Of a DNA stretch of 42,421 bases, positions 4,180 through 35,296 are shown in pieces. Below the pieces are notes generated by a model. The model had not been told where the DNA came from and did no database searches. It saw only the letters and a list, made by a program, of their open reading frames with translations. The stretch is taken from positions 1 to 42,421 of the forward strand of contig JBGSTX010000200.1 in assembly GCA_041736305.1 (NCBI GenBank). Direction: 5' to 3'. The position numbers and the translations under genes were made by a program. Every line of letters starts with the position of its first letter. The stretch's first letter is position 1. Source of the stretch: Oligoflexus sp. (GTDB taxonomy: Bacteria; Bdellovibrionota_B; Oligoflexia; Oligoflexales; Oligoflexaceae).

Positions 4180-4412
4180 GATGGGAAGGCGACGGGCAAA
4201 AACCTGAAGATAATGGCAGCGCCATATAAGCGCATGATCTGCTTGAATCTTTCAAGCAAAGCTTGGCATTCGGATTGCATTGCCTAAAGTGGGCAATCAG
4301 TCCGTTGTGTGTTCCTGGATATCTGCTTACATCCTCTTTATGCCATCCTAAACTTCCCGTCAAAGATTTTGGCTTACAGGCCAAACATTTCCCCACATGC
4401 AGCGGACAAAAC

Positions 4413-4432
4413 AGCCCGAAAAGGGCTTTTTT
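4413..4432 (+). terminator. Possible intrinsic terminator
   Basis: AGCCC-GAAAA-GGGCT followed by TTTTT. Confidence 0.4.
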
Positions 4433-4548
4433 CTCATTTTGACGTAGTCTGCATCATATTTGCAGCAGTTTAGACTGAATTCAAATACCTGCAGCGCATA
4501 TTCAGAATCCTTCACCGAAAAGCTGCCGCAGTCCTAGAATCGATACAA

Positions 4549-4815
4549 TTATTTTTGCTCGGGATCAGTTACGCTGGGGGCACTTTCAATAGCCTTTGCT
4601 TCAGCTGGAGCTTCTACGCTAGGAGCAGCGTCCATAACTTTCGGCTCGGTGGTAGCCTCCGCTTCAGCTTTAGTCTCGTCACTCTTGCTAGCAGCGGGAG
4701 TGCCTTTGTACCAGCGCACTGTTTCGTCCCAGTTAAGACGGTCTTGAGCCGTCATACATCCCTGAAGAGAAAAGCTAAGGCCAAGGCTTGCAAGTAAGAA
4801 AAATGAAGTTTTCAT
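4549..4815 (-). CDS. Small lipoprotein with Ala/Glu/Pro-rich tail
   Basis: Signal peptide with lipobox SLQGC; GGAGG RBS upstream. Confidence 0.7.
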   Translation of the reverse strand: MKTSFFLLASLGLSFSLQGCMTAQDRLNWDETVRWYKGTPAASKSDETKAEAEATTEPKVMDAAPSVEAPAEAKAIESAPSVTDPEQK

Positions 4816-5174
4816 GGTTTCGCTTCCTCCAGGTTTTTATGATGCTTTCATCCTCCTTTTGGTGCAAAACGCAAGCCCAGCATTTTCTCCAAGTGTTACA
4901 GCCTTGCCTGGAGACGAATGTTTAAGGCTTCGACGAACAGTGCGTTAGAATCCACGACAAAAAGCAGCTACTTTTCCACAAATCCTGATGCAAGGTATTT
5001 TTGTGCGTCCTTTCCCGGATGAGTGTGTGCAGTAGCTGCTATCCCTCCCAGAAGAGACCCGGTTATGGTCAGTTTAGTCGCATCTACATTCAAGCGGAGC
5101 AATGATTACCGCCTCTTTTGGGAAAAGCTCAGTCGTGGTATTTACGACGCTGGACAATACTGCCGCATAGGTAG

Positions 5175-12296: not shown

Positions 12297-13340
12297 ATGC
12301 CGGAAGATGACATAGTCATATATATGGATGAATCTGGAAATTCAGGATCAAATATCTTAGATCATGATCAGCCCGTTTTTTGCATTGCAGCATTTGTATT
12401 TCGAAAGCAATCAATGAAATTGGTTGAGATTTTGATTAAAAAAGCCGGAGACCTGGCAAGAAGCGGAAGATACACATCTGCAGAAGTAAAATTTTCACTT
12501 TTTACTAGTCCTCGGCATTTCAAAATTTTTGAAAATCTAATGGAACAGATCAAAAAAAATTGTATCTCATTGTGCTACAGCGTTATTTATAAAGATTTTT
12601 TCAGCGGGATGATGATGGTTGAATACTTAATCGATTCAGCATATAACCCTCACGTCCCAAATCATGTGTTCCAAATACCACACATTAAGCAAAATATGGC
12701 CAATCAATTTTGCAAGTATATTCCAGCGACAATTCGGCAAAATTTTATAAACGCATTGAAGAGCTGCGACGAAAATTCCTTGCTGTCAGCAAAGGAAGAA
12801 ATTGATCGCCATATCGATGACTATGGTCTGAAACAAGATCAATTTTCGTGGGTACTTCGTTTAGATAGAAAAGACTACTTAGAATGCACATTTGTTGATT
12901 TATCGCATTTCCCAGATCACTGCAGCCCAAATTTCCACGCATTTTCTATGCAGATTGGCTGCCTTTCGAGACTATTTATGCAAAAAAAACTTGGTGGTGG
13001 AAAGCTTTTCTTCGATGAGCAGCGAGAGTATCAGAAATCTTTTGCCCTCCTCACTAAATCCTACAATTCATCGGAAGAAAAATATATCCCACATCCATAT
13101 GATTCTGATCGCGGATTTACAATTGGACCTTTTTTTAACGGTGAGATTGAATTTTTAAATTCTAGTTCGACTAGTGGAATTCAAAGTGCAGATTTAGCCG
13201 CGGCCTCTTGTAATTGGCTATTAAAGAAAAGGCTTATTCACGGAGAGGTGCCGATGCATACCAAGACTTATGAAAAGAAACTAACATCTGAACTTCTGCA
13301 CGGCATTGTAAATCAAACATCATATCTCGCACAAAATTAG
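12297..13340 (+). CDS. DUF3800 domain protein (RNase H-like fold)
   Basis: N-terminal IYMDESGNSG...QPVF, EVKF, FDEQ and C-terminal S...GIQSADLAA; visibly AT-richer than the flanks. Confidence 0.8.
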   Translation: MPEDDIVIYMDESGNSGSNILDHDQPVFCIAAFVFRKQSMKLVEILIKKAGDLARSGRYTSAEVKFSLFTSPRHFKIFENLMEQIKKNCISLCYSVIYKDFFSGMMMVEYLIDSAYNPHVPNHVFQIPHIKQNMANQFCKYIPATIRQNFINALKSCDENSLLSAKEEIDRHIDDYGLKQDQFSWVLRLDRKDYLECTFVDLSHFPDHCSPNFHAFSMQIGCLSRLFMQKKLGGGKLFFDEQREYQKSFALLTKSYNSSEEKYIPHPYDSDRGFTIGPFFNGEIEFLNSSSTSGIQSADLAAASCNWLLKKRLIHGEVPMHTKTYEKKLTSELLHGIVNQTSYLAQN

Positions 13341-13446
13341 CATTTTTCGTTATATTTTTAGAATTGCAAAAGTCTTTTCTAGTGCCTATGTTGGACGTCC
13401 AATTTAAAATCAGCACTGAATTTTTCGGCAACAAAAGAGTAGGTAT

Positions 13447-13810
13447 GGGAGTGTAATTAGTTTTCTGTAAACAGCTCTTTAGCGGATAAGCTCAAAGCCT
13501 GTCCGAGCAAGGAGCTGGAAGTGGATAAGGAAATACCCTCTCAAGACTCGAACGGAAAGTCGATGTGCTCCGCGTATGCCTGGCCGAAAATGAAGGCACT
13601 CGCTTCTTGCTAAGCTCCGTGAACGAGCTTAAACACGCGGCGTGAAGGGTACTGTCATCGCTAGCGTCGATGGCTTAAAAGGGTGGCTTTCGAAGTAAAC
13701 AATGTTGGTCCCAGATCCTGGGGCAGTTGAAGATCATTTTCGAGGACCGAATTCTTCAACACGTTACCTGACGCTTCGTGGCTAGTTTACGCAAAAAATC
13801 TTATATTCTC
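13447..13810 (+). mobile_element. Internally deleted IS256-family element (non-autonomous relic)
   Basis: Ends GGGAGTGTAATTAGTTTTCTGTAA and TTACGCAAAAAATCTTATATTCTC form an imperfect IR (15/24). The interior translates with frameshifts to DVLRVCLAENEGTRFLLSSVNELK-RGVKGTVIASVDGLKG and QLKIIFEDRI, typical IS256 transposase segments. Confidence 0.8.
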
Positions 13811-13912
13811 CTCGCTCCGCAGCGCCTTTAGTGCCTTCCTAGGACATACTTCCTACCTCACCGTAGGCTGAACGAAAAAATACCAGCATCAAATAAAGCT
13901 CTCGCTATAGCA

Positions 13913-13955
13913 GGTGACAACGGTGACAAGGTTGTAGCTGTCACCGCTGTCACCG
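13913..13955. repeat. Four iteron-like GGTGACA/TGTCACC units (two direct, two inverted), putative replication origin
   Basis: GGTGACAACGGTGACAAGGTTGTAGCTGTCACCGCTGTCACCG. Confidence 0.65.
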
Positions 13956-13957
13956 TA

Positions 13958-14332
13958 CTATACAAGCTCAAAAATCCCGTCTAAGATCTTCACTACAGCT
14001 TTTTTCTGATCTCCATCAAGGAGCAATATCTTTTCTCTGAGCAGTTCTAATTTGCCATTAATAGACTTTTTGTCGGCAGCGCGACTCACCAACGTACGCC
14101 CAAAAGCTTCAGCAATCACATCAGCTAACTTCACATCCAAGTTGTCACAGACTTCATAAAGCAAGCCGATGTGCGTATCCTTAACGACAGAAGACTCAAG
14201 TCGAGCGATCGTAGACTGTGGTTTACCAAGCTTCTCGCCAAGCTCACCTTGCGTAAGGTCCCGCTCCTTACGAAGACGTCTGACTATCAAACCAAGATTC
14301 TTCATGAACTCTTCAAAATCTCCCTCTGCCAT
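13958..14332 (-). CDS. XRE-family HTH transcriptional regulator
   Basis: VRRLRKERDLTQGELGEKLGKPQSTIARLES; divergent from the Prim-Pol gene. Confidence 0.9.
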   Translation of the reverse strand: MAEGDFEEFMKNLGLIVRRLRKERDLTQGELGEKLGKPQSTIARLESSVVKDTHIGLLYEVCDNLDVKLADVIAEAFGRTLVSRAADKKSINGKLELLREKILLLDGDQKKAVVKILDGIFELV

Positions 14333-14382
14333 TTCAGACCCCCATCACGCTGAAAAGTCATTTATAGCATAGGCGGATTTTG

Positions 14383-14443
14383 TTGACACTCTTAAGGCAC
14401 GGACGCTATATAGCGTCTGTGCCTATAAAACGTATTTTTATAG
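14383..14443. promoter_or_regulatory. Divergent promoter region with operator-like palindromes
   Basis: TTGACA at 14383; 30-bp palindrome AGGCACGGACGCTATATAGCGTCTGTGCCT (14395-14424, one mismatch); CTATAAAA-5nt-TTTTATAG (14423-14443). Confidence 0.6.
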
Positions 14444-14476
14444 CAACAATGCATAAATCTGACACTGGGGCTTAAT

Positions 14477-16828
14477 GTGGATCACTTATCTAGCCAAAAA
14501 AATAGTGACAAGTCGCGCATCTTGGAAGCTCTTCGCTACCTCAGCCTAGGTTGGCCCGTTCTTCCCCTTCATCATCCATTAAGCAATGGATCATGCAGCT
14601 GCGCCAAGCCCGACTGTTCGAGTAAAGCCAAACATCCTCGTACAAAGAATGGAGTTCGCGACGCCTCACTAGACCCGTTGACTGTTTGTCAGTGGTGGAC
14701 TCAATGGCCCGAGGCCAACATTGGATTGGCAACTGGGTCCATCTCTCAACTTGTTGTGATCGATATCGATCCACGACATGGAGGCGACCAATCCTGGCAA
14801 AAGTGGACTATGCAAAACAATATCCCAAGGACCCTGACTACCCGAACTGGAGGGGGTGGGCTTCACCTCTTATTCAAAGCGGCCGGAAAGAAGATCCCAA
14901 ATAGGACTGGAGTCTTGTCAGGCATCGATATTCGCGGCGAAGGAGGGTATATCGTTGCTCCTCCCAGCCAGCATGCATCCGGTAAGTCCTATGAATGGGT
15001 CGGAACAGTCGATCCCTTAGTGATTCTTGATCTCCCTAGGGCCGTTGAAGACCTCATTTTACAAGAGGCCAAAGTCCTTCCCATAAAGGGGAATCATATT
15101 CCGAGTGGCTCGCGCAATAGCATCCTCGCTTCACTAGCAGGTACGTTGCGCCGCCAAGGACTTGAAGAGCAGGGGATAAGAGAAGCTCTTCATGCTATCA
15201 ATCAGACTCTCTGCCTTCCTCCGTTAACTAGAGCTGAAGTCGCCACAATTGCCAAAAGCATCGGCCGCTATGAAATACCTGACAGCCAGAGCACTATTGA
15301 GTGGGTTAAGCCCACCGATCTTCCTTCCCCTCAGTATGCTGTCCCCGAGATGACAGAAGACTATCTGCCACAAGCGCTTCGCCCTTGGATTAAAGATATT
15401 GCCGATCGTATGCAGGTCCCCTTGGAGCTTATTGCTGCGCCTCTTATCGTCTCTGTTTCCTCTGTAATTGGTAGGCAGATAGGCATTTATCCAAAGCAAA
15501 AGGATGACTGGCTGGTTGTCCCGAACCTTTGGGGGGCTGTTATCGCCAGACCTGGTTTCTTTAAGTCTCCTGCTATTGCAGAAGCCATGAAGCCAATTGA
15601 ATTTTTAGTGCGTAAATCTCGTCAGCAGTTTGAAAGTGAACAAATCATGGCTCGAGTCAAAGAGGAAGCACTGAAAGCAAAGCTTGAAGGGCTTAAAGAA
15701 CTTGTCAAGAAATCCACTCGTAAAGAGAACGCACATGATATCAGTGAGTTGAAAAATGATCTGCAATCTAGCCTTAATTGCCTAGATGAAAACTCAATCT
15801 TCGAAAGGCGCTACAAAACCAACGATGCAACAGTTGAAAAGATGGCTTGCCTTCTTAAAGAGAACCCTCATGGGATTTTCCTGCTGAGAGACGAATTATA
15901 TGGCTGGCTTCAAACTATGAATAAGTCGGGACGGGAAGGCGATCGCGAGTTTTATCTCGAAGCATGGAATGGCTATGGTTCGTTTACAGTCGACCGAATC
16001 ATGAGGGGGACGATCCACGTACCGGCCTTATGCCTCTCAGTCTTTGGGGGCCTTCAACCTGGTAAACTAGAGGCATATGTTAGCCAGATGATAAGCGGCG
16101 GGAAAGGAGATGATGGATTTCTCCAGCGTCTCCAGGTCCTCGTTTATCCTGAGATGCCTAAAAAGTGGAAGAATATAGATCGTAAGCCCAACAACGAAGC
16201 CTATAAACATGTCGAGGAACTGATAGAAAAGCTGGCTCGTATTAGTCCTCATGAGCTGGGATGCGAAAGCATTCATGCGATACCTGGCCTCCGCTTTGAT
16301 GAGCCTGCTCAGGATCTTTTTAATAAGTGGCGTGAAGATCTGGAGAGGCGTCTTCGATCAGACGAAGCTGGATCTCCTGCCTTTGAGTCCCACCTAGCAA
16401 AATACCGCTCCCTGCTGCCCTCACTAGCACTTATTTTTCATCTTATTTCTGTGGGGGCGATAATCCCGACCTTAGGCCACCAAGGAGTTAAAAAAGTTGG
16501 GATTGATAGTCTTAAACTGGCAATCAATTGGGTAAGTCTACTAGAGGCCCATGCACGAAAAGTATACGCACCAGCACTTCATCCAGAAATCCAGGCTGCA
16601 CAAGCCCTTCTCTCTAAAATTAAAAAGGGGTTTGTAAGAGATCGTGATCGCCTGCGGTCTATTTATCGGCGCAATTGGGCACTACTAGATGGAGCAGAAA
16701 AGGTTGAATCTGCGATTTCAGTTCTAGAGGAGAAAGGCTGGGTCAAAGTAGAAACTCTCAAAGTCGCAACGAGCAGCACAGAAAGGATCCGCCTGCATCC
16801 CGACCTAATCAACGAGCTGGATATATAA
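14477..16828 (+). CDS. Bifunctional primase/polymerase (Prim-Pol) + PriCT + DUF3987 replication protein
   Basis: GWPVLPLH, CSC...C..KAKHP, ANIGLATG, VIDIDPRHGG, RTGGGGLHLLF, IDIRGEGGYIVAPPSQHASG; GSRNS.L.SLAG (PriCT); PNLWG.VIARPG..KSP, RDEL.GW, DGFLQR (DUF3987). Confidence 0.9.
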   Translation: MDHLSSQKNSDKSRILEALRYLSLGWPVLPLHHPLSNGSCSCAKPDCSSKAKHPRTKNGVRDASLDPLTVCQWWTQWPEANIGLATGSISQLVVIDIDPRHGGDQSWQKWTMQNNIPRTLTTRTGGGGLHLLFKAAGKKIPNRTGVLSGIDIRGEGGYIVAPPSQHASGKSYEWVGTVDPLVILDLPRAVEDLILQEAKVLPIKGNHIPSGSRNSILASLAGTLRRQGLEEQGIREALHAINQTLCLPPLTRAEVATIAKSIGRYEIPDSQSTIEWVKPTDLPSPQYAVPEMTEDYLPQALRPWIKDIADRMQVPLELIAAPLIVSVSSVIGRQIGIYPKQKDDWLVVPNLWGAVIARPGFFKSPAIAEAMKPIEFLVRKSRQQFESEQIMARVKEEALKAKLEGLKELVKKSTRKENAHDISELKNDLQSSLNCLDENSIFERRYKTNDATVEKMACLLKENPHGIFLLRDELYGWLQTMNKSGREGDREFYLEAWNGYGSFTVDRIMRGTIHVPALCLSVFGGLQPGKLEAYVSQMISGGKGDDGFLQRLQVLVYPEMPKKWKNIDRKPNNEAYKHVEELIEKLARISPHELGCESIHAIPGLRFDEPAQDLFNKWREDLERRLRSDEAGSPAFESHLAKYRSLLPSLALIFHLISVGAIIPTLGHQGVKKVGIDSLKLAINWVSLLEAHARKVYAPALHPEIQAAQALLSKIKKGFVRDRDRLRSIYRRNWALLDGAEKVESAISVLEEKGWVKVETLKVATSSTERIRLHPDLINELDI

Positions 16829-16909
16829 GCTTGTCCTGAACTTCGGTGAAGAGATGTCTTCTGTGCCCTCAGGACACATGCCAGAAACTCTGCTGAACCA
16901 AACTCCCAA

Positions 16910-16997
16910 ACGCAAAAAAGCCCAGGCTCGAAAAATCGAAGAACCGGGCTTTTTGCAATGGTGGGGATGAGATGACTCGAACATCCGACCTCACGCT
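16910..16997 (-). repeat. Copy of the tRNA-Ile 3' half plus downstream terminator (att-like direct repeat of 22528-22615)
   Basis: 88 bp with one mismatch to 22528-22615; the 39 bp at 16959-16997 equal the tRNA 3' end including CCA. Confidence 0.95.
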
Positions 16998-17592
16998 CGT
17001 TGATGTAGATCCAAGACATGGAGGCGATGCTTCATGGAAAACTTTCTCGCTTGATCAAGGTCTACCCACCTCACTGACAGCACTGAAAGGTGGCGGGGTT
17101 TTCACCTATTCTATAGGGCTCCCTGTCGGCCTATTCCAAATAAAGTTAGTATTCTGCCTGGAGTTGATATCCGCAGCGAAGGTGGATATATCGTCGCCCA
17201 TCTCAATCACCATGCATCAGGCAAATTTTACAAATGGAAGGACAGCTTGGTCTTGGATGAAATTCAAGATCTCCCCAGAGCTCTCGAGCAGCTCATTCTT
17301 CAGCCCGCGCCCAAAGTCATACCCCTCCGAATTCCAAGTGCCTCTCGCAACAACACACTAACGTCTCTAGCAGGTCTCTTACGAAGACAAGGTCTTGAAG
17401 AAGGTGGAATTGGAGAAGCACTTGAAGCCCTCAATAAGACTCTTTGCTATCCTCCTCTTGAATCGCAAGAAGTCATGACCATAGCCAAAAGTATATGCTA
17501 AATATCAGAGCTCCGAGCCAATAGTAGAGGCTGAATGGCCGCAAATGAAGGATTTACCGACCATAAAGGTAGAATTGCCAACCCTCAAGAGG
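16998..17592 (+). pseudogene. Truncated, frameshifted paralogue of the Prim-Pol/PriCT gene
   Basis: Across several frames: VDVDPRHGGDASW, GVDIRSEGGYIVAP, HASGKFYKW, SRNNTLTSLAGLLRRQGLEE, TIAKSI, all collinear with 14477-16828. Confidence 0.9.
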
Positions 17593-17823
17593 TACATCCA
17601 CAGAACAGACGGCCGCTTGACTGAAATCGCCACAAAGCTTGGGGTTGATTAGCTTCGAAGCTCAGATGATACAGCTTGTTATCCGCCCTTGAGAGCGTCT
17701 TTATGGCTAAATTCATGCTAGGCAAGGGTTTCACAGAAAAAATTTACTTGTACGCTGTCACACCTCCGCGCTATATGACGCAGTCCTTACAAAATGCGCT
17801 CCCATTAGCCTGAGGTGTCCCTC

Positions 17824-18813
17824 ATGAAGCTTATGATTCGATTGCTTTTGCTCGCACTGTCTCTCACGCCCGAGATCAGCCTTAGCCTCGAGCTGCAAAC
17901 GAAGAGGCACCCTATATGCGGTGTTGAAGCTTACCAGACTCGGCGTGACCCAGTTTGCGGTATAGAGCTCTACGTTTCTAAAGAAAGTTCTTTTTGCTCT
18001 CCATCTAAATTCAATAGCAGAGCTGATGCCGCTCGCTGCGGGACAACCTGTAAGTGGGTAACCCCTACTGGGAGGAACGGCGAACTCATCACCGGCCCGG
18101 GTGGGCGTCCACAGCGAACTTGTGTGGGTCAGGTCCCAAAAACTTGTGAGCACCCTGATTTTGGTGCTGTAGCCTATCAAACCTGTCGCCACCCTCAGCA
18201 CGGAGTTGAGCTTTACAGCGAGTGCCAGAGTCCACAGTTTGGAGCAGCACAGTATAACTTGTGCAGTTTCTACAAAACCCCTGAGCAAGTAGAGGCCTTT
18301 ATCTCAGAGACTAAGCTAAGCCTCGATACCTACGCGTCCATACTACCAGTTAGACAGGGTGAGTTGTTTTCCCGGCTTAGAAATGAAAAAGCCCTCGCTT
18401 GCCTCATCGACAAGTACAGCGTCGACCCACTTTATGAACAGGTGACAATTGATTTACGGGAGAAGTTCTTCTTAATCTTTGGCTACGAGCGATCAGACGC
18501 TCAAGTGTCATGCCGGAATGTGAACGTTAACGATGTTGAAGTCAAAGTTACATTAGGTCGTCTCGACTGCAAGTCTTTTAACAGATCAAGCTTGGCTGCT
18601 CTTGAGATGCCGCCAGGAATTGCTGAAGGACCTTTTAAGCGATTCAAACAGAACTGCAGCCTAAAAATTTCCCACGATACTCTACTAAATTGGTTCACGA
18701 CCAAAGCAGACGAAATCGATCTCCTGCTGGAAGACCTTGCAGCAAGGCAAGATTCTAAGGCCAGGAACAGCCTTCTCAAGCTCAAAGAAGAAATATCCTC
18801 GTCAGCACAATAA
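17824..18813 (+). CDS. Secreted Cys-rich protein with 13-aa xxHPxxGVExYxx repeats
   Basis: GAGGTG RBS, signal peptide, repeats HPICGVEAY / DPVCGIELY / HPDFGAVAY / HPQHGVELY / SPQFGAAQY. Confidence 0.75.
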   Translation: MKLMIRLLLLALSLTPEISLSLELQTKRHPICGVEAYQTRRDPVCGIELYVSKESSFCSPSKFNSRADAARCGTTCKWVTPTGRNGELITGPGGRPQRTCVGQVPKTCEHPDFGAVAYQTCRHPQHGVELYSECQSPQFGAAQYNLCSFYKTPEQVEAFISETKLSLDTYASILPVRQGELFSRLRNEKALACLIDKYSVDPLYEQVTIDLREKFFLIFGYERSDAQVSCRNVNVNDVEVKVTLGRLDCKSFNRSSLAALEMPPGIAEGPFKRFKQNCSLKISHDTLLNWFTTKADEIDLLLEDLAARQDSKARNSLLKLKEEISSSAQ

Positions 18814-18845
18814 GCCTCGCAATGCTCTACCTATAGGATTAGTAC

Positions 18846-20126
18846 ATGCGCGCTCTGATCATTTTTTTTATGTGCCTTCTTTCGTCCGGCTTGGCGCTTG
18901 GTCAGCAGCTGCCTGAATGCGTGGTGCCCAAACCTGACCCCGCCAACACAGCAGCTGTGAAGTCTAGTCTCGAAAAGCTTAGAAGTCAGTGCATCCCTCA
19001 GGTCAAAGAAATTGATCGATGTCTGACCCAAGCGCGCCTCCTTACGGGCACTATCGCTGACCTTCTACGGAAATTTCGGCCTCAGGAGAATGCGGCACCA
19101 CTCCTAGTCAATCTTGTCGCAAACGGCAGATCCGCCACTGGCCCTGTGGATTATAACGTTTTGGCGAACTTTCGTGCCTTAGAACGCGATTATCTTCAAT
19201 CCTTAGATGAAATTGAAAAATTTGCGATCAGAGCTAAAGTTGCATTTAACAATCGAGAAAAAATCAGGGATAAAATTGCTGACCTAGATCGTGGTTTTCA
19301 AGATGGAATCGAGCTGCTTAGGTCGCTGAGTGCAAGAGAATACGCTCTTCTCTCATTTATTGAACTAGCACGCGACGAAGTTATAAGGTCTTACGAACAA
19401 GCACAGCCTGAAGCTTTATGGCTCGCAGGGCCCGCCTGCGAGCTAGCGCAAACGAAGCTTGTGGTCGCAAAGGTTCAGTCGTCTATTCAAGAATTCATCG
19501 CCGATACAGACAAGATTCACCAAACAATCCGCAATGCCAGAAGTGCAAGGGAAAATCTGATCACCTACATCTATGCTTCATTACGCTCGCAGCTCGAAGA
19601 CGCTTACCGCGAATCCTTAAGTCGAGACCTATCCGGGCTGGGTAATCGGATCGATACGGTTATCCATCTTCATAGACTGTCGACTTCGTTCGAACTTTGG
19701 TTCTCATCAATCGGTGAAGACCCCGAGAGGAATTATATTGAAACCACTTACTTGCAGTTCGATGCGTCCCGGCGTTTATACGCCGCCGACCTTATTGCAG
19801 CTAAAGATTTTAGAGATAGAGTAAGGATCGTCAGTAACTCATTTCCCGACCTTGGGAAACCTTATCTTGAGCGCGTCGGATCAGTTATCAGCAATTTGGA
19901 AGGCAAATTAAAACGCGTTGAGACTAAGGGCTGGCAAGGTTTCCTTGCCTCTCAAAAGCTTATCGCTTCCCGCAGGCTGGCTAGCCCAGAGAAGTACACC
20001 CCTTCGTGTGTAAATCAGTTGCAAAGATACCTGAATCAAGCAGAACGCATACAATCTATCGATCGATACAGATCAGTTGAGAACCTGTTTATGAAAGCAA
20101 GCAAGATTTGCATGGTGCCGTCATGA
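18846..20126 (+). CDS. Secreted, largely alpha-helical hypothetical protein
   Basis: Signal peptide MRALIIFFMCLLSSGLALG; long amphipathic helices; Cys near both ends; its stop overlaps the next start (ATGA). Confidence 0.75.
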   Translation: MRALIIFFMCLLSSGLALGQQLPECVVPKPDPANTAAVKSSLEKLRSQCIPQVKEIDRCLTQARLLTGTIADLLRKFRPQENAAPLLVNLVANGRSATGPVDYNVLANFRALERDYLQSLDEIEKFAIRAKVAFNNREKIRDKIADLDRGFQDGIELLRSLSAREYALLSFIELARDEVIRSYEQAQPEALWLAGPACELAQTKLVVAKVQSSIQEFIADTDKIHQTIRNARSARENLITYIYASLRSQLEDAYRESLSRDLSGLGNRIDTVIHLHRLSTSFELWFSSIGEDPERNYIETTYLQFDASRRLYAADLIAAKDFRDRVRIVSNSFPDLGKPYLERVGSVISNLEGKLKRVETKGWQGFLASQKLIASRRLASPEKYTPSCVNQLQRYLNQAERIQSIDRYRSVENLFMKASKICMVPS

Positions 20127-21799
20127 TGAAAGCAAAATTCGGACTCCTATTTTTCCTTAGCATCACAATTATCTCTTGTGGCACTCGTCAACGAGACGAC
20201 TCAGCTAAATATTGTCCGGATGGAACCTGTTACATCGAGGCCGTCAAAACTAGCGGATCCAATCCATGTCAAGGCTTTATCGTGCCATTGGAGTGCTTAA
20301 ATCAAAGCCCCGGCACCACTCCAGGGGGTTCCTCAGGTGGCAGCACAGGCCCCGAACCTTCCATACCTGATAATCCAGGCATCACAGATGGCTGTGTTGG
20401 AGAATGTGGAGAAGCAGGTTCAGGCAACGGCAGTCCTAGCACTCCAACAAGTGATAACGGTGAGCCAACTGAAGCGGTAGTTGGCAAATTCTTTAACTCT
20501 CTAAGTAAAGAAACCTCCAAAACATGGGGAAAGATTCGCGACGAGATAAATGGAAAAAATGCAAAAAGGCGAAAAAAAGCTCGAGAAGCCAAAAGGTTAC
20601 TCGCTGAAGCTAAGGATCTTTGGGCCCAAGCAGAGATCTACGGCCGATCGATCAATGCTAGCCGCGAGGAACTCGCGGCGAATCTTGCATCTATTCAGAA
20701 CTCGGTGGCTGCAGCCGACGGAGTTAACCTCAATCAAAGCTTAAAAGAATTTCGGGATGCCTATAATTCTGGGACTCGTTCGGCGCTTGGAAATGTGCCC
20801 GAACTCAGCCCTTCAGCTTTTGCTGCGGGTACGGATCGCCATGACGCGAGTATCTACGTTGAACAAGGTAAAATCGACCAAGCAAGGCGATACCTAGACT
20901 ACGCGTCGGAAAAGGTCGAAACCTTTCGATCAAATCGTGACTATTTGGCTCGAAAGAGCCTTCTGGCCGTCTCTAAGAATGCTATCGACGAGTCCGAGGC
21001 GAGCTTTAAGGCAGGCAATCCTAGGGCGGGAAGTCAACTCTACGAATTTGGTATGGTGGCGGCAGACATTGCCATCTCAGTAACTCCGGTAATTGGATGG
21101 GGTAAAGATATCTACGAAGCTGTTTCTGGCGTCAGCCTGCTCGATAGCCGCCGCTTAAGCAGCTTCGAAAGAACGATGGCTATTGTCGGAGTATTAACGG
21201 CTGGAGTGGGTAGCAAACTTACTCTCGCCGGCAAAGCTGGAAAAATAGGAAAAGTATTGTCGAAAGGCGCTAAAAGCGCTGACGAAGCTTCGGCAGTCAT
21301 CAAATCCGCTGATAAGGCTGAGGCTATTCTCGACGCGTCTAGCACGATTGGTTGGAATGCAGCAGATATAAAAAGACTCGCGAATAATGCACGGGATGTG
21401 GTCAGACACGGCCCTATGAATCCAGGAAGAATGCATGAGATACCAATGGGGTCGGGAACCCTAGCAGATACATTTAGAAGTGGCTCGTACTTTACCTATC
21501 AAAGCACACAGCCTGTATCCCTATATCGAGTAACGGGTCGTCCACATCGCCAAGGTGATCGCATAGGCAGATTTTGGACCCGTGATAAGCCATCGGGACC
21601 AGTACAAGCTATAATTGATTCCGCTCTGGATCCAACTTGGGGCAATCTAGGAACCTATTGGACGAAAGTAGAAGTTCCAGCTGGCACTATAGTGCATGAA
21701 GGTGTAGCCGCCTCTCAAAGAGGTTTGGTCGGCGGAGGAAATCAAATTGTGATTGAAGGGGTTTTCCCGAGCTGGATCACCGAACAAGGAAAATTCTAA
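20123..21799 (+). CDS. Lipoprotein polymorphic toxin with PT-TG pre-toxin domain and C-terminal toxin domain
   Basis: Lipobox TIISC; G/S/P linker; AADIAISVTPVIGWGKDIYEAVSG..L...LSSFER...IVG (PT-TG-like); C-terminal TFRSGSY, LYRV, GRFWT, SALDP.WGN, VPAGT..HEG.AA.Q.GLVGGGNQ. Confidence 0.75.
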   Translation: MMKAKFGLLFFLSITIISCGTRQRDDSAKYCPDGTCYIEAVKTSGSNPCQGFIVPLECLNQSPGTTPGGSSGGSTGPEPSIPDNPGITDGCVGECGEAGSGNGSPSTPTSDNGEPTEAVVGKFFNSLSKETSKTWGKIRDEINGKNAKRRKKAREAKRLLAEAKDLWAQAEIYGRSINASREELAANLASIQNSVAAADGVNLNQSLKEFRDAYNSGTRSALGNVPELSPSAFAAGTDRHDASIYVEQGKIDQARRYLDYASEKVETFRSNRDYLARKSLLAVSKNAIDESEASFKAGNPRAGSQLYEFGMVAADIAISVTPVIGWGKDIYEAVSGVSLLDSRRLSSFERTMAIVGVLTAGVGSKLTLAGKAGKIGKVLSKGAKSADEASAVIKSADKAEAILDASSTIGWNAADIKRLANNARDVVRHGPMNPGRMHEIPMGSGTLADTFRSGSYFTYQSTQPVSLYRVTGRPHRQGDRIGRFWTRDKPSGPVQAIIDSALDPTWGNLGTYWTKVEVPAGTIVHEGVAASQRGLVGGGNQIVIEGVFPSWITEQGKF

Positions 21800-22077
21800 T
21801 GGCGCAGGAAGCAGAAAAATTGCTCGCTGAGTTTATTGAAATCAGAACACCACAGATGCTCGTCGAGGTCGCGAAAAGCTTATCTGAGTTCATTGAAATG
21901 GGGCTGCTGAAGGAGATAAGCCAGGACATCTCTGTCAGGGAGATTCTTGATGGACCACCTTTCCCTGATGACCTGATAAACATAGAGTTCGTCACTGTAC
22001 CTGGCGGTTCGAAGTACCTGCTGAGCTGCGAAACGTATAAGGGTTTTGGCGGAATTTTTAAAAAAATGACCCCTTAG
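21799..22077 (+). CDS. Putative immunity protein
   Basis: 92-aa acidic protein with no signal peptide, translationally coupled to the toxin (TAATG overlap); C-terminal YLLSCETYKGFGG. Confidence 0.65.
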   Translation: MAQEAEKLLAEFIEIRTPQMLVEVAKSLSEFIEMGLLKEISQDISVREILDGPPFPDDLINIEFVTVPGGSKYLLSCETYKGFGGIFKKMTP

Positions 22078-22530
22078 ACTAGTGCCGAGATGTAGCTCGA
22101 CCTCGAAGCTAGAGGCTCAAACTGAATGGTAGTTCCTTAACAATAGGCGCATACTTGGTGAACGCGTAAACATTCACCTTGTCGAGGAACACTGCGAAGT
22201 GATCGCCAAGAGAATCTTCCTATCGATCTCTGCACTTCTTTTGAACAGCTCGAACTGCTCTGAAAAGCTTTCCCCTGAAGGAATGTGGCCATTGCAAAGC
22301 TATGGAGGTAGCGCTGGAATTCGAACGACCGGCGGTATCACGTTGTACAGGGCTGGTAGGTTATCTACTGAGCTTCGACAGGCCGAGAAGCCTACTCAGC
22401 GTCCGTCACCGATCGCCAGAATCATTATGATGTTTTGGCTGCTTGGTGAGTCTTACTCCGCATTATATTTATGCACCGAAAGCCCGCAGGACACATTCGG
22501 GACGCTTTCTAAGACTGAAACCCCCGCACG

Positions 22531-22573
22531 CAAAAAAGCCCAGTCTCGAAAAATCGAAGAACCGGGCTTTTTG
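22531..22573 (-). terminator. Intrinsic terminator downstream of tRNA-Ile
   Basis: Minus strand AAAAAGCCCGG...CTGGGCTTTTTT hairpin with U-tract. Confidence 0.7.
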
Positions 22574-22576
22574 CAA

Positions 22577-22653
22577 TGGTGGGGATGAGATGACTCGAAC
22601 ATCCGACCTCACGCTTATCAGGCGTGTGCTCTAACCAACTGAGCTACATCCCC
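22577..22653 (-). tRNA. tRNA-Ile (anticodon GAT)
   Basis: GGGGATGTAGCTCAGTTGGTTAGAGCACACGCCTGATAAGCGTGAGGTCGGATGTTCGAGTCATCTCATCCCCACCA; full cloverleaf, 77 nt, encoded CCA. Confidence 0.97.
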
Positions 22654-22776
22654 ATCGGAAGACCTTTTATAAGAAGTCTCTCTTATACTGTCAACTTCTT
22701 TCAGGTTCTTTGTTCTGGTCTAAAAGCGAAAAAAGAGCACAGCTCAAACAGCTATGCTCCATCCGTCACCGCTCTC

Positions 22777-34729: not shown

Positions 34730-35296
34730 ATGCTGGGCCTCAGACATTTCCGCGGCAGTGCTATCGATCTTTTTCAAGGCGATATCACTGAATTTGTTTG
34801 TGACGTCATGGTCAATGCCGCTAACGAATCCCTTGGCGGTGGTGGAGGTGTCGACGGCGCGATTCATCGCGCAGGAGGTCCCAGTATCCTTGCTGCTTGC
34901 CGGGAGATCGGCGGCTGCCCTACGGGACAGGCCGTTATCACCGGGGCTGGTAGCTTGCCAGCTCAGCGTGTAATCCATGCCGTTGGCCCCATCTGGAAAT
35001 CGGGTAAAGAAGGTGAAGCCGCTCTGTTGGAAAGCGCCTACAGAAGCAGCCTGCAACTCGCAGCGCAGCATGGCCTGAAGCATATCGCTCTTCCATCCAT
35101 CAGCACTGGAGTCTACGGCTATCCGATTGAAAAAGCTGCTCCGCTTGCCCTGCAAGTGGTCATGGGCTTTTTGGAAGAATCGCCCCCCGGCTTGCTGAGA
35201 CGCATCACCTTTGTGCTCTTCGATCGAACACAGTATCAGGTCTTTCAAAAAGCGCTATTCGCGACTTTTCCCGAAGCTGCTGAGGAGCGGACGTGA
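34730..35296 (+). CDS. Macrodomain O-acetyl-ADP-ribose deacetylase (YmdB/MacroD-like)
   Basis: GDIT, VNAAN.SL.GGGGVDGAIHRAGG, VIHAVGP, SISTGVYGYP. Confidence 0.92.
   Translation: MLGLRHFRGSAIDLFQGDITEFVCDVMVNAANESLGGGGGVDGAIHRAGGPSILAACREIGGCPTGQAVITGAGSLPAQRVIHAVGPIWKSGKEGEAALLESAYRSSLQLAAQHGLKHIALPSISTGVYGYPIEKAAPLALQVVMGFLEESPPGLLRRITFVLFDRTQYQVFQKALFATFPEAAEERT

Follow-up and report, generated by a model that had tools for sequence, protein, structure and literature searches.

What do four tightly coupled genes do together when three of their products carry export leaders and the fourth is a small cytoplasmic protein? This question is raised by an operon, g1 to g4, found in a 42,421-nucleotide (nt) stretch of DNA from Oligoflexus sp. 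This stretch, which was analysed as a whole and is called the window here, is contig C128 of a 5.02 Mb genome that consists of 392 contigs and is 92.7% complete. The operon is, with good probability, an Oligoflexia polymorphic toxin-immunity cassette: g3 would be a lipoprotein toxin with the fold of an NAD(P)+ glycohydrolase (NADase), g4 its immunity protein, and g1 and g2 accessory proteins of the cell envelope. The toxin and immunity parts are well supported, and a part of g1 and g2 in delivery is more tentative. The cassette comprises the following genes and domains (lengths in amino acids, aa):

17824-18813, + strand: g1, 329 aa; predicted Sec-exported accessory protein with N-terminal Cys repeats and a helical, Cys-containing C-terminal half.
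18846-20126, + strand: g2, 426 aa; accessory protein, predicted to be exported by Sec; its model is all-helical with helices of great length, and four Cys are conserved.
20123-21799, + strand: g3, 558 aa from ATG; polymorphic toxin, predicted lipoprotein.
21059-21274, + strand: PT-TG pre-toxin domain of g3, aa 313-384 (PF14449).
21395-21796, + strand: C-terminal toxin domain of g3, aa 425-558 (134 aa); TNT-like NAD(P)+ glycohydrolase fold by model, family without Pfam model.
21799-22077, + strand: g4, 92 aa; candidate cytoplasmic immunity protein without leader and without Pfam family.

A first-pass annotation, made from the sequence without database searches, had described four coupled genes on the + strand, and both the open reading frames (ORFs) and their junctions were found at 17824-22077 as claimed. 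Read on the DNA, g1 and g2 are separated by a 32-nt gap, g2 and g3 share an ATGA overlap and g3 and g4 a TAATG overlap. Alternative starts exist for g1 (an in-frame GTG at 17815) and, upstream of the ATG, for g3 (TTG 20108 in the ORF list). The G+C content of the operon is unremarkable (0.47-0.49). A promoter and terminator scan of 17400-22700 returned sites that were no commoner than in shuffled sequences, and none of them was tellingly placed. Among the sequencing runs listed with matching sequence, none is from RNA, and the single complete match is a DNA run, which may be the source itself. Pfam has no family for g1, g2 or g4, and with NCBIfam none of the four proteins yielded a match above the cut-off. 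A classical intracellular toxin-antitoxin pair was considered and ruled out, because three of the four products have export leaders and the toxin is modular.

The g3 protein is composed, in this order, of a lipobox leader, a Cys-rich head, a linker of Gly, Ser and Pro, a helical stalk, PT-TG, a helical linker and the C-terminal toxin domain. Its N-terminus reads MMKAKFGLLFFLSITIISC followed by G, a hydrophobic leader that ends in LSITIISC. The lipobox IISC of the first-pass annotation was thus recovered, and its Cys, Cys19 (20177-20179), is invariant in 12 of 12 aligned homologues. Judged from this leader, g3 is probably lipidated at Cys19 and hence anchored in the outer membrane. The residue at +2 after the lipid Cys is Gly. 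During Lol sorting in E. coli, Gly at +2 favours the outer membrane. The PT-TG segment, which had also been proposed at first sight, is well above the Pfam cut-off (37.6 versus 23.5 bits; 41.7 bits in the genome search). It is the only Pfam match of g3 at E<=1: no PAAR, VgrG, Rhs, two-partner secretion (TPS), LXG or WXG domain was detected. A PDB sequence-profile search with g3 yielded coiled-coil noise only. The first-pass statement that the window contains no type VI secretion system (T6SS), CdiB, Rhs or type VII secretion system gene agrees with Pfam scans of 39 window ORFs, among which the small ORFs are not all included. Furthermore, a search of the genome (92.7% complete) for TssC (PF05943) was negative, with a positive control in E. 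coli. Slam (PF04575) and ShlB (PF03865) gave no match in the genome either, but as their models were silent in the control genomes as well, these two negatives carry no information. Pre-toxin domains have been proposed as possible sites of proteolytic processing (Zhang et al., PMC3482391).

The gene order of the cassette is not confined to this locus. A paralogous cassette in the same genome (L007, contig C83) has an identical gene order. Compared with the window, its g1' is 70% and its g2' 64% identical. Its g3' is 56% identical to g3 over aa 1 to ~415 and unrelated beyond, and its g4' is unrelated to g4 and belongs to Imm40 (35.7 bits, cut-off 25). In a third cassette, located on a 9329-nt contig, g1 is 72%, g2 59% and g3 53% identical, the latter along the entire protein, whose toxin end is the same. 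A single-protein search with g2 was positive for 20 of 61 related genomes, and the g2 profile for 32 of 131 genomes of the phylum (18 of 55 genera). Relatives with cassette genes comprise metagenome-assembled genomes of Oligoflexia and Oligoflexales, Oligoflexus sp. and the cultured Pseudobacteriovorax antillogorgiicola, which encodes a g2 homologue.

Synteny was scored with profiles of g1, g2 and g3 at 36 g2 loci, 34 of which were fetched from relatives. The profiles were built from the first 16 loci, and the remaining 20 serve as independent count. A locus was considered to have room if at least 1200 nt were available for g3 after g2 or at least 900 nt for g1 before g2. A g3-like ORF is located directly 3' of g2 in 30 of the 32 loci with room (15 of 17 among the 20 independent loci) and a g1-like ORF directly 5' of g2 in 29 of 33 (13 of 17 among the independent ones). 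Two loci, L145 and L147, have room but no g3-like gene. By this linkage, homologues of g1 to g3 co-occur, a point that the first-pass annotation had proposed to check. At three loci (L037 7914-8966, L038 8333-9757 and L146 4351-5346), a g1-like gene follows the g3 gene, which suggests tandem cassettes.

The two ends of g3 behave differently. Modularity was assessed with 27 complete g3 homologues (351 pairs, BLASTP, E<=0.001), taking the last 130 aa as the C-terminal end. The N-terminal parts are similar in 296 of the 351 pairs, the last 130 aa in 11. This fits the variable C-termini suspected before, and the small genes downstream vary as well. Toxin ends of g3 homologues that exceed the Pfam cut-offs are Col-Pyo_DNase, EndoU_bacteria (two), Peptidase_C39, CdiA_C, LHH (two), TNT and ADPrib_exo_Tox. 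Immunity families found 3' of the homologues, again over the cut-offs, are Imm40, Imm8, Imm35, Imm45 (two loci), Barstar and SUKH_5. A conserved N-terminus combined with variable toxin ends and downstream immunity genes is described as the hallmark of polymorphic toxin systems (PMC3482391). This means, the cassette is a polymorphic toxin system sensu Zhang et al. 2012.

Some other loci deserve mention in this context. Behind the g3 homologue of L033 (2011-3112, contig C228 of genome G058), a small WapI-like ORF (weak match), a 67-aa fragment that repeats the PT-TG core and a DUF6228 gene are located. This arrangement resembles a displaced module of toxin tip and immunity gene left by recombination. 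L139 (4467-7085, contig C140 of genome G021) encodes an 872-aa g3 homologue in which a trypsin-like peptidase domain precedes the carrier part at the N-terminus and the toxin end is an LHH nuclease. The trypsin-like domain may bear on the processing of g3-type toxins. In Bdellovibrio bacteriovorus, two exported proteins match the g3 profile (L040 5104-6633 and L042 5200-6606), and each of their genes is followed by a small overlapping ORF. Within the 6-kb flanks of both, no g1- or g2-like gene is present, so that the PT-TG carrier also exists without the accessory pair. In addition, the genome of the window encodes a second, unrelated family of lipoprotein PT-TG toxins (L008 6239-8568, contig C294; L009 3370-7961, contig C56). 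These toxins have 684 and 674 aa and a leader that ends in LIAC. Their N-terminal ~560 aa are near-identical and their ends differ: one is a barnase-type Ribonuclease followed by Barstar, the other is unnamed and followed by Imm8. In L009, the upstream gene that overlaps the toxin gene codes for an exported coiled-coil protein of 733 aa, which includes a trypsin-like domain; a partner of this kind is missing in L008.

Which activity resides in the C-terminal domain of g3? An exhaustive HMMER search among 1.84 billion cluster representatives (clusters at 50% identity) assigned 1066 clusters to the toxin family at E<=0.001, of which 604 reach E<=1e-10. In most of the 150 matches listed, the match is located at the C-terminal end, as judged by eye. 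Among 16 carriers scanned with Pfam, four are Rhs proteins, three TPS/haemagglutinin proteins and three PT-TG proteins, five have no family and one has a weak PapC_C match. One toxin domain is employed by several unrelated delivery systems, with Rhs, CdiA-like and other PT-TG proteins as carriers.

An AlphaFold model of the toxin domain, calculated from an alignment of 38 sequences, has a pLDDT (predicted local distance difference test) of 93.6. Its top match in Foldseek is Tne2 (6B12) with an E-value of 3e-4 and template modelling (TM) scores of 0.62/0.69. VIA-align 2 superimposed the model on Tne2 with a Z-score of 12.7 and a root mean square deviation (rmsd) of 2.2 Å, with 108/119 residues aligned. 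Tse6 (Z 9.4), Rhs1-CT from Serratia (6XTD; Z 9.3), fungal NADases (Z 6.0-7.5) and TNT (Z 5.3) follow, and classical ADP-ribosyltransferases score below the TNT-like NADases. The sequence identity to the TNT-like structures compared is 9-18%. Tne2, Tse6 and Serratia Rhs1-CT are reported as demonstrated NAD(P)+ glycohydrolases (PMC10539506), and TNT is described as an NAD(P)+ glycohydrolase, too (PMC6398120). For TNT-like NADases, a glycine cradle is reported together with a Gln and an aromatic residue that is essential (PMC6398120). The 38-sequence alignment (numbering of the 134-aa piece) shows no variation at G113-G115 and hardly any at Q117, W61 and F27. It is plausible that these GGG, Gln and aromatic positions match the NADase sites, as judged from the aligned ranges only. 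Weak Pfam TNT matches were obtained for four of the 38 family members (best E 0.004). Based on the model, we conclude that the toxin domain belongs to the TNT-like NADase superfamily as a remote member, and NAD(P)+ depletion is its most likely activity.

A toxin domain of this kind calls for an immunity protein, and g4 is the candidate. A metagenome scan with the toxin-domain alignment confirmed 171 stretches, the best 80 of which were kept. By profile, a frame of the g4 family is located directly downstream of the toxin domain in 75 of these 80 loci, and 0 such frames are present elsewhere in them. When compared with g4 alone by single-sequence phmmer, the ORF directly after the toxin domain matched in 17 of 79 loci. 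With jackhmmer, the downstream ORF was drawn into the g4 family in 65 of 79 loci, a count that, like the 75 of 80, is not independent of the procedure because the family was grown from these ORFs. Both counts are backed up by the 17 direct matches and by the uniform length of the downstream ORFs, which have 80-99 aa in 55 of 79 cases. The metagenome exceptions are L069, where no room is left 3', L091, L099 and L113, where another small family is found, and L110 with an unrelated ORF. Within the phylum, g4 homologues occur in three of 131 genomes. In L045, a PT-TG toxin fragment whose C-terminal domain is of the window type is directly followed by a g4 homologue (51% identity). In L046 (5118-7464, contig C326 of genome G030), a g3-like toxin gene whose product has a different end is followed by four small ORFs. 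The fourth of them is a g4 homologue that does not match this end and represents an orphan immunity gene in an array. Since a g4-family gene follows the toxin domain in 75 of the 80 metagenome loci, this computed linkage marks g4 as the cognate immunity protein of the g3 toxin domain, to which it would bind.

The two remaining proteins, g1 and g2, are less easily assigned. Both have N-terminal hydrophobic leaders and conserved Cys, which in g1 are invariant in its alignment. g1 starts with repeats of the CGVxxY / FGxxxY type and has a helical end. The g2 model (pLDDT 86.7) is a bundle of very long helices comprising up to 87 residues. Foldseek found no PDB match to this model at E<=0.001, only long-helix noise. 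ESM Atlas provided no usable match for g1 and g2, and PDB sequence-profile searches with both resulted in coiled-coil noise only. In L029, L030 and L032, the g1 position is occupied by a divergent exported protein of ~313 aa that is still recognised by the g1 profile. At its end, the L026 homologue of g1 carries two beta-trefoil lectin domains of the ricin type (50.3 and 42.5 bits). These domains are the sole direct functional hint, and they suggest that g1 works outside the cell and binds sugars.

Several observations speak against the proposed cassette. The toxin domain has no Pfam match at all, TNT (PF14021) included, and a search of the PDB sequences with the family profile gave 0 matches. 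With neither a Pfam TNT match nor a solved structure found by sequence, the NADase assignment is a fold-based call, and the related ADP-ribosyl transfer is a possible alternative activity of the domain. The strict lipobox pattern is present in just 15 of the 27 g3 homologues, and three of them resemble plain Sec proteins. Likewise, PT-TG is over the Pfam cut-off in 20 and not in all of the 27 g3-type proteins scanned. In two Oligoflexia loci the partnership with g4 fails. In L130, a g3 homologue with the window toxin domain is followed by an unrelated 233-aa ORF (4326-5027, contig C147 of genome G009). This ORF has an N-terminal Cys-x-x-Cys and may encode an alternative immunity protein. In L146, the same toxin domain is not accompanied by a g4-family gene, and the next gene, located 48 nt downstream, is g1-like. 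For g1 and g2, no known family or fold was found in Pfam, NCBIfam, ESM Atlas and PDB searches. Finally, the similarity matrices of 21 complete triads co-vary (2000 permutations), with r 0.92 for g2 and the g3 carrier, 0.77 for g1 and g2 and 0.77 for g1 and the g3 carrier (0/2000 permutations each), and more weakly for the toxin end (r 0.29-0.32; 16/2000 permutations), but for linked genes, common descent is enough to produce such co-variation. Therefore, this result reflects joint inheritance of the three genes with a shuffled toxin end and is not evidence of binding. From synteny, co-divergence with the g3 carrier and the lectin fusion, we infer only that g1 and g2 may act in delivery or receptor binding.

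How could such a cassette work? g3 would be exported by Sec, subsequently lipidated and, with Gly at +2, anchored in the outer membrane. Its first ~415 residues would serve as conserved carrier and the last ~135 as exchangeable toxin module. g1 and g2, presumably disulfide-containing, would be placed in the envelope or on the cell surface, where the stalk of g3 may associate with g2 as an elongated helical partner and with g1. The lectin hint would make g1 the target-binding subunit. Jointly, g1, g2 and g3 might present the toxin or transfer it to a neighbouring cell, and the toxin would be released or transferred around PT-TG. After entry into the target cytoplasm it would, according to its fold, deplete NAD+ and NADP+ and kill or arrest the cell. 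In the cytoplasm of the producer, g4 would bind the toxin domain, so that producer and kin are protected. From the architecture of the cassette, we infer that it acts between bacteria. A more far-reaching proposal can be made tentatively, and we consider it rather doubtful in its full extent: g1, g2 and the g3 carrier would form a self-contained diderm delivery apparatus for which Sec and the lipoprotein pathway suffice. Such a contact-dependent route would be distinct from type V secretion and contact-dependent growth inhibition (T5SS/CDI), T6SS and TraAB exchange. In this apparatus, g1 would be an exchangeable receptor-binding adhesin that is sometimes lectin-tipped, g2 a long helical stalk or translocation subunit and PT-TG the release point.

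Part of the same evidence can be arranged in other ways. g3 might reside in the inner leaflet of the outer membrane and reach neighbours by outer-membrane fusion or exchange or in vesicles, with g1 and g2 boosting the transfer like SitB and without a surface receptor complex. Such a SitA-like route would agree with Gly at +2 of g3, which means outer-membrane sorting by the E. coli textbook rule, and with the lack of any other secretion-system domain in g3. The gene layout is as reported for sitBAI (PMC5562445, PMC8546572). Nevertheless, we regard this route as unlikely, if one to be reckoned with: SitA is reported only in species with traAB and without HMMER homologues outside Myxococcales, and SitB is predicted to be a beta-barrel (PMC5562445), whereas the g2 model is all-helical. 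Moreover, a g1 homologue with fused lectin domains would rather be expected on the outside than as a helper in the periplasm. The lectin domains also bear on the view that g1 and g2 are not involved in delivery at all. As envelope proteins, they might fold, stabilise or inactivate g3 in the periplasm, and the toxin would be freed as a soluble bacteriocin-like protein by cleavage near PT-TG. Conserved Cys and helical bundles in g1 and g2 without an enzymatic or barrel domain would be compatible with such helpers, as would the L139 homologue of g3 with its own N-terminal trypsin-like domain and the proposal that pre-toxin domains are processing sites (PMC3482391). A periplasmic chaperone would hardly be expected to carry lectin domains, as one g1 homologue does, and the strict three-gene linkage across distant families is tighter than commonly seen with a folding helper. 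Neither argument settles the matter. We hold this view to be improbable.

A different target is conceivable as well. The toxins could be aimed at prey bacteria or host cells, and immunity would only guard the producer prior to export. Its named relatives assign the organism to Bdellovibrionota, a phylum in which predators abound. Ricin-type lectins bind many kinds of glycans, and TNT-like NADases are reported to hit eukaryotic cells, too (PMC6398120). What makes a weapon for predation or against eukaryotes a poor candidate is the immunity side: Orphan immunity genes and arrays (L046, L028 and L033) are the signature of conflict between related strains via a shared delivery route. The same signature is seen in the variety of toxin ends within a single genus and in genomes with more than one cassette. 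The toxin ends are for the most part nucleases of the kind typically found in antibacterial toxins. The interbacterial toxin-immunity cassette is the reading that we prefer.

How did the cassette get to its present location? The surrounding DNA contains these features:

16900-16997, no strand assigned: att-like direct repeat of 98 nt, left copy; corresponds to the 3' part of tRNA-Ile and 59 nt beyond it.
16972-17501, + strand: decayed Prim-Pol/PriCT primase, second copy, 5'-truncated and split over two frames.
22518-22615, no strand assigned: right copy of the 98-nt direct repeat, overlapping the 3' 39 nt of the tRNA gene (22577-22615) plus 59 nt beyond.
22577-22653, - strand: tRNA-Ile (GAT), found with ARAGORN; presumed integration site.

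The two repeat copies are 96% identical and enclose the broken primase copy and the four cassette genes. That the operon is mobile, as the first-pass annotation had stated, is supported by this 98-nt direct repeat, which holds the 3' end of tRNA-Ile. The claim of a decayed island around the operon was substantiated in one part only, the broken and truncated primase copy at 16972-17501. In this copy, PriCT_1 is recognised with 47.3 bits (17247-17501), and a 40-nt DNA repeat (17002-17041) recurs inside the intact primase at 14762-14801. This intact Prim-Pol/PriCT/DUF3987 primase (14477-16828) is located left of the repeats together with a helix-turn-helix gene and a DUF3800 gene. The left region also contains the G+C minimum (0.374 at 12-13 kb), which is the sole dip. 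The right flank is composed of housekeeping genes for Fpg, ParAB, an IcmF-like mutase, SucCD and MurB. No integrase was found among the ORFs Pfam-scanned between 12297 and 22588, a set that does not cover small or broken remnants in six frames. A search of viral contigs with a five-sequence alignment found no relative, hence no sign that the cassette rides on phages. We read the region as two related islands in tandem at tRNA-Ile, with the toxin-bearing one a ~5.5-kb remnant. Window positions 12297-16997 appear to be a second, better preserved island that ends at the left 98-nt repeat copy. Apart from the islands, a gene for a Macro-domain protein (152.3 bits) is located at 34730-35296 between sucD and murB. 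Macro domains bind or hydrolyse ADP-ribose derivatives.

Only few delivery routes for polymorphic toxins are known in Gram-negatives: CDI/T5SS, T6SS, Rhs/Tc-like shells and outer-membrane exchange in myxobacteria. The cassette is a compact three-gene carrier module with a plug-in toxin/immunity end. If g1 and g2 were indeed delivery machinery, it would represent a new way by which diderms pass proteins into their neighbours. As it occurs in the cultured P. antillogorgiicola, its function is genetically testable. In addition, a large toxin-domain family (1066 clusters) and a cognate small immunity family were defined, neither of which is contained in Pfam. By its modelled fold, the toxin-domain family is probably a further group of NADase effectors. 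In the literature on PT-TG lipoproteins, Oligoflexia and polymorphic toxins of Bdellovibrio, subscription journals and supplements aside, no description of the cassette was found.

Among the systems described so far, the myxobacterial sitBAI is the closest analogue. Both have an overlapping upstream accessory gene whose product carries a type I signal, a lipoprotein toxin with a conserved N-terminal part (~375 aa in SitA, ~415 aa in g3) and a polymorphic C-terminus, and an immunity gene directly 3'; in both, several cassettes per genome and an association with mobile elements are found (PMC5562445, PMC8546572). SitA lipoprotein toxins are reported to be delivered by TraAB outer-membrane exchange (PMC5562445). 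The phylum is a different one, and the likeness is one of layout. Two accessory genes are present here instead of one. According to its model, g2 is all-helical, whereas SitB is predicted to be a beta-barrel, and PT-TG, present in g3, does not occur anywhere in the SitA paper's main text (PMC5562445). The first-pass statement that SitA has a different architecture is therefore right for the number of accessory genes, the helical g2 and PT-TG, but the overall layout is alike.

A second comparison leads to Gram-positives and their LXG toxins. These toxins also require small helical partners encoded upstream. In our cassette the partners are large (329 and 426 aa), and each has its own signal peptide. 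According to Pfam, g3 lacks LXG; it has a Sec/lipoprotein leader instead, and its host is a diderm. What g3 shares with the PT-TG/LXG toxins of type VIIb, e.g. EsaD, is a helical N-terminal carrier, PT-TG, an exchangeable toxin and an immunity gene 3' (PMC10941976). Similarly, APD1/APD2 from Amoebophilus, MAFB-N and MicroscillaN are described as lineage-restricted N-termini that follow a lipobox or signal peptide and precede polymorphic C-termini (PMC3482391). In contrast to our cassette, no conserved pair of accessory genes is part of their description there, and for the APD effectors the predicted targets are eukaryotic hosts (PMC3482391).

For the toxin domain itself, the TNT-like NADases are the relevant comparison (Tne2, 6B12; Tse6/Tne1, 4ZV0 and 4ZV4; Rhs1-CT/Tne3, 6XTD; TNT, 4QLP). 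The g3 domain differs from them by a sequence identity of 9-18% and the lack of a Pfam TNT match, and g4 has no Pfam family. It has their palm-domain fold in the model, and a Gly-rich stretch together with Gln and aromatic residues is described for these enzymes as well (PMC6398120). Furthermore, like the TNT-like toxins, the g3 toxin family is associated with many delivery systems and with a small immunity partner.

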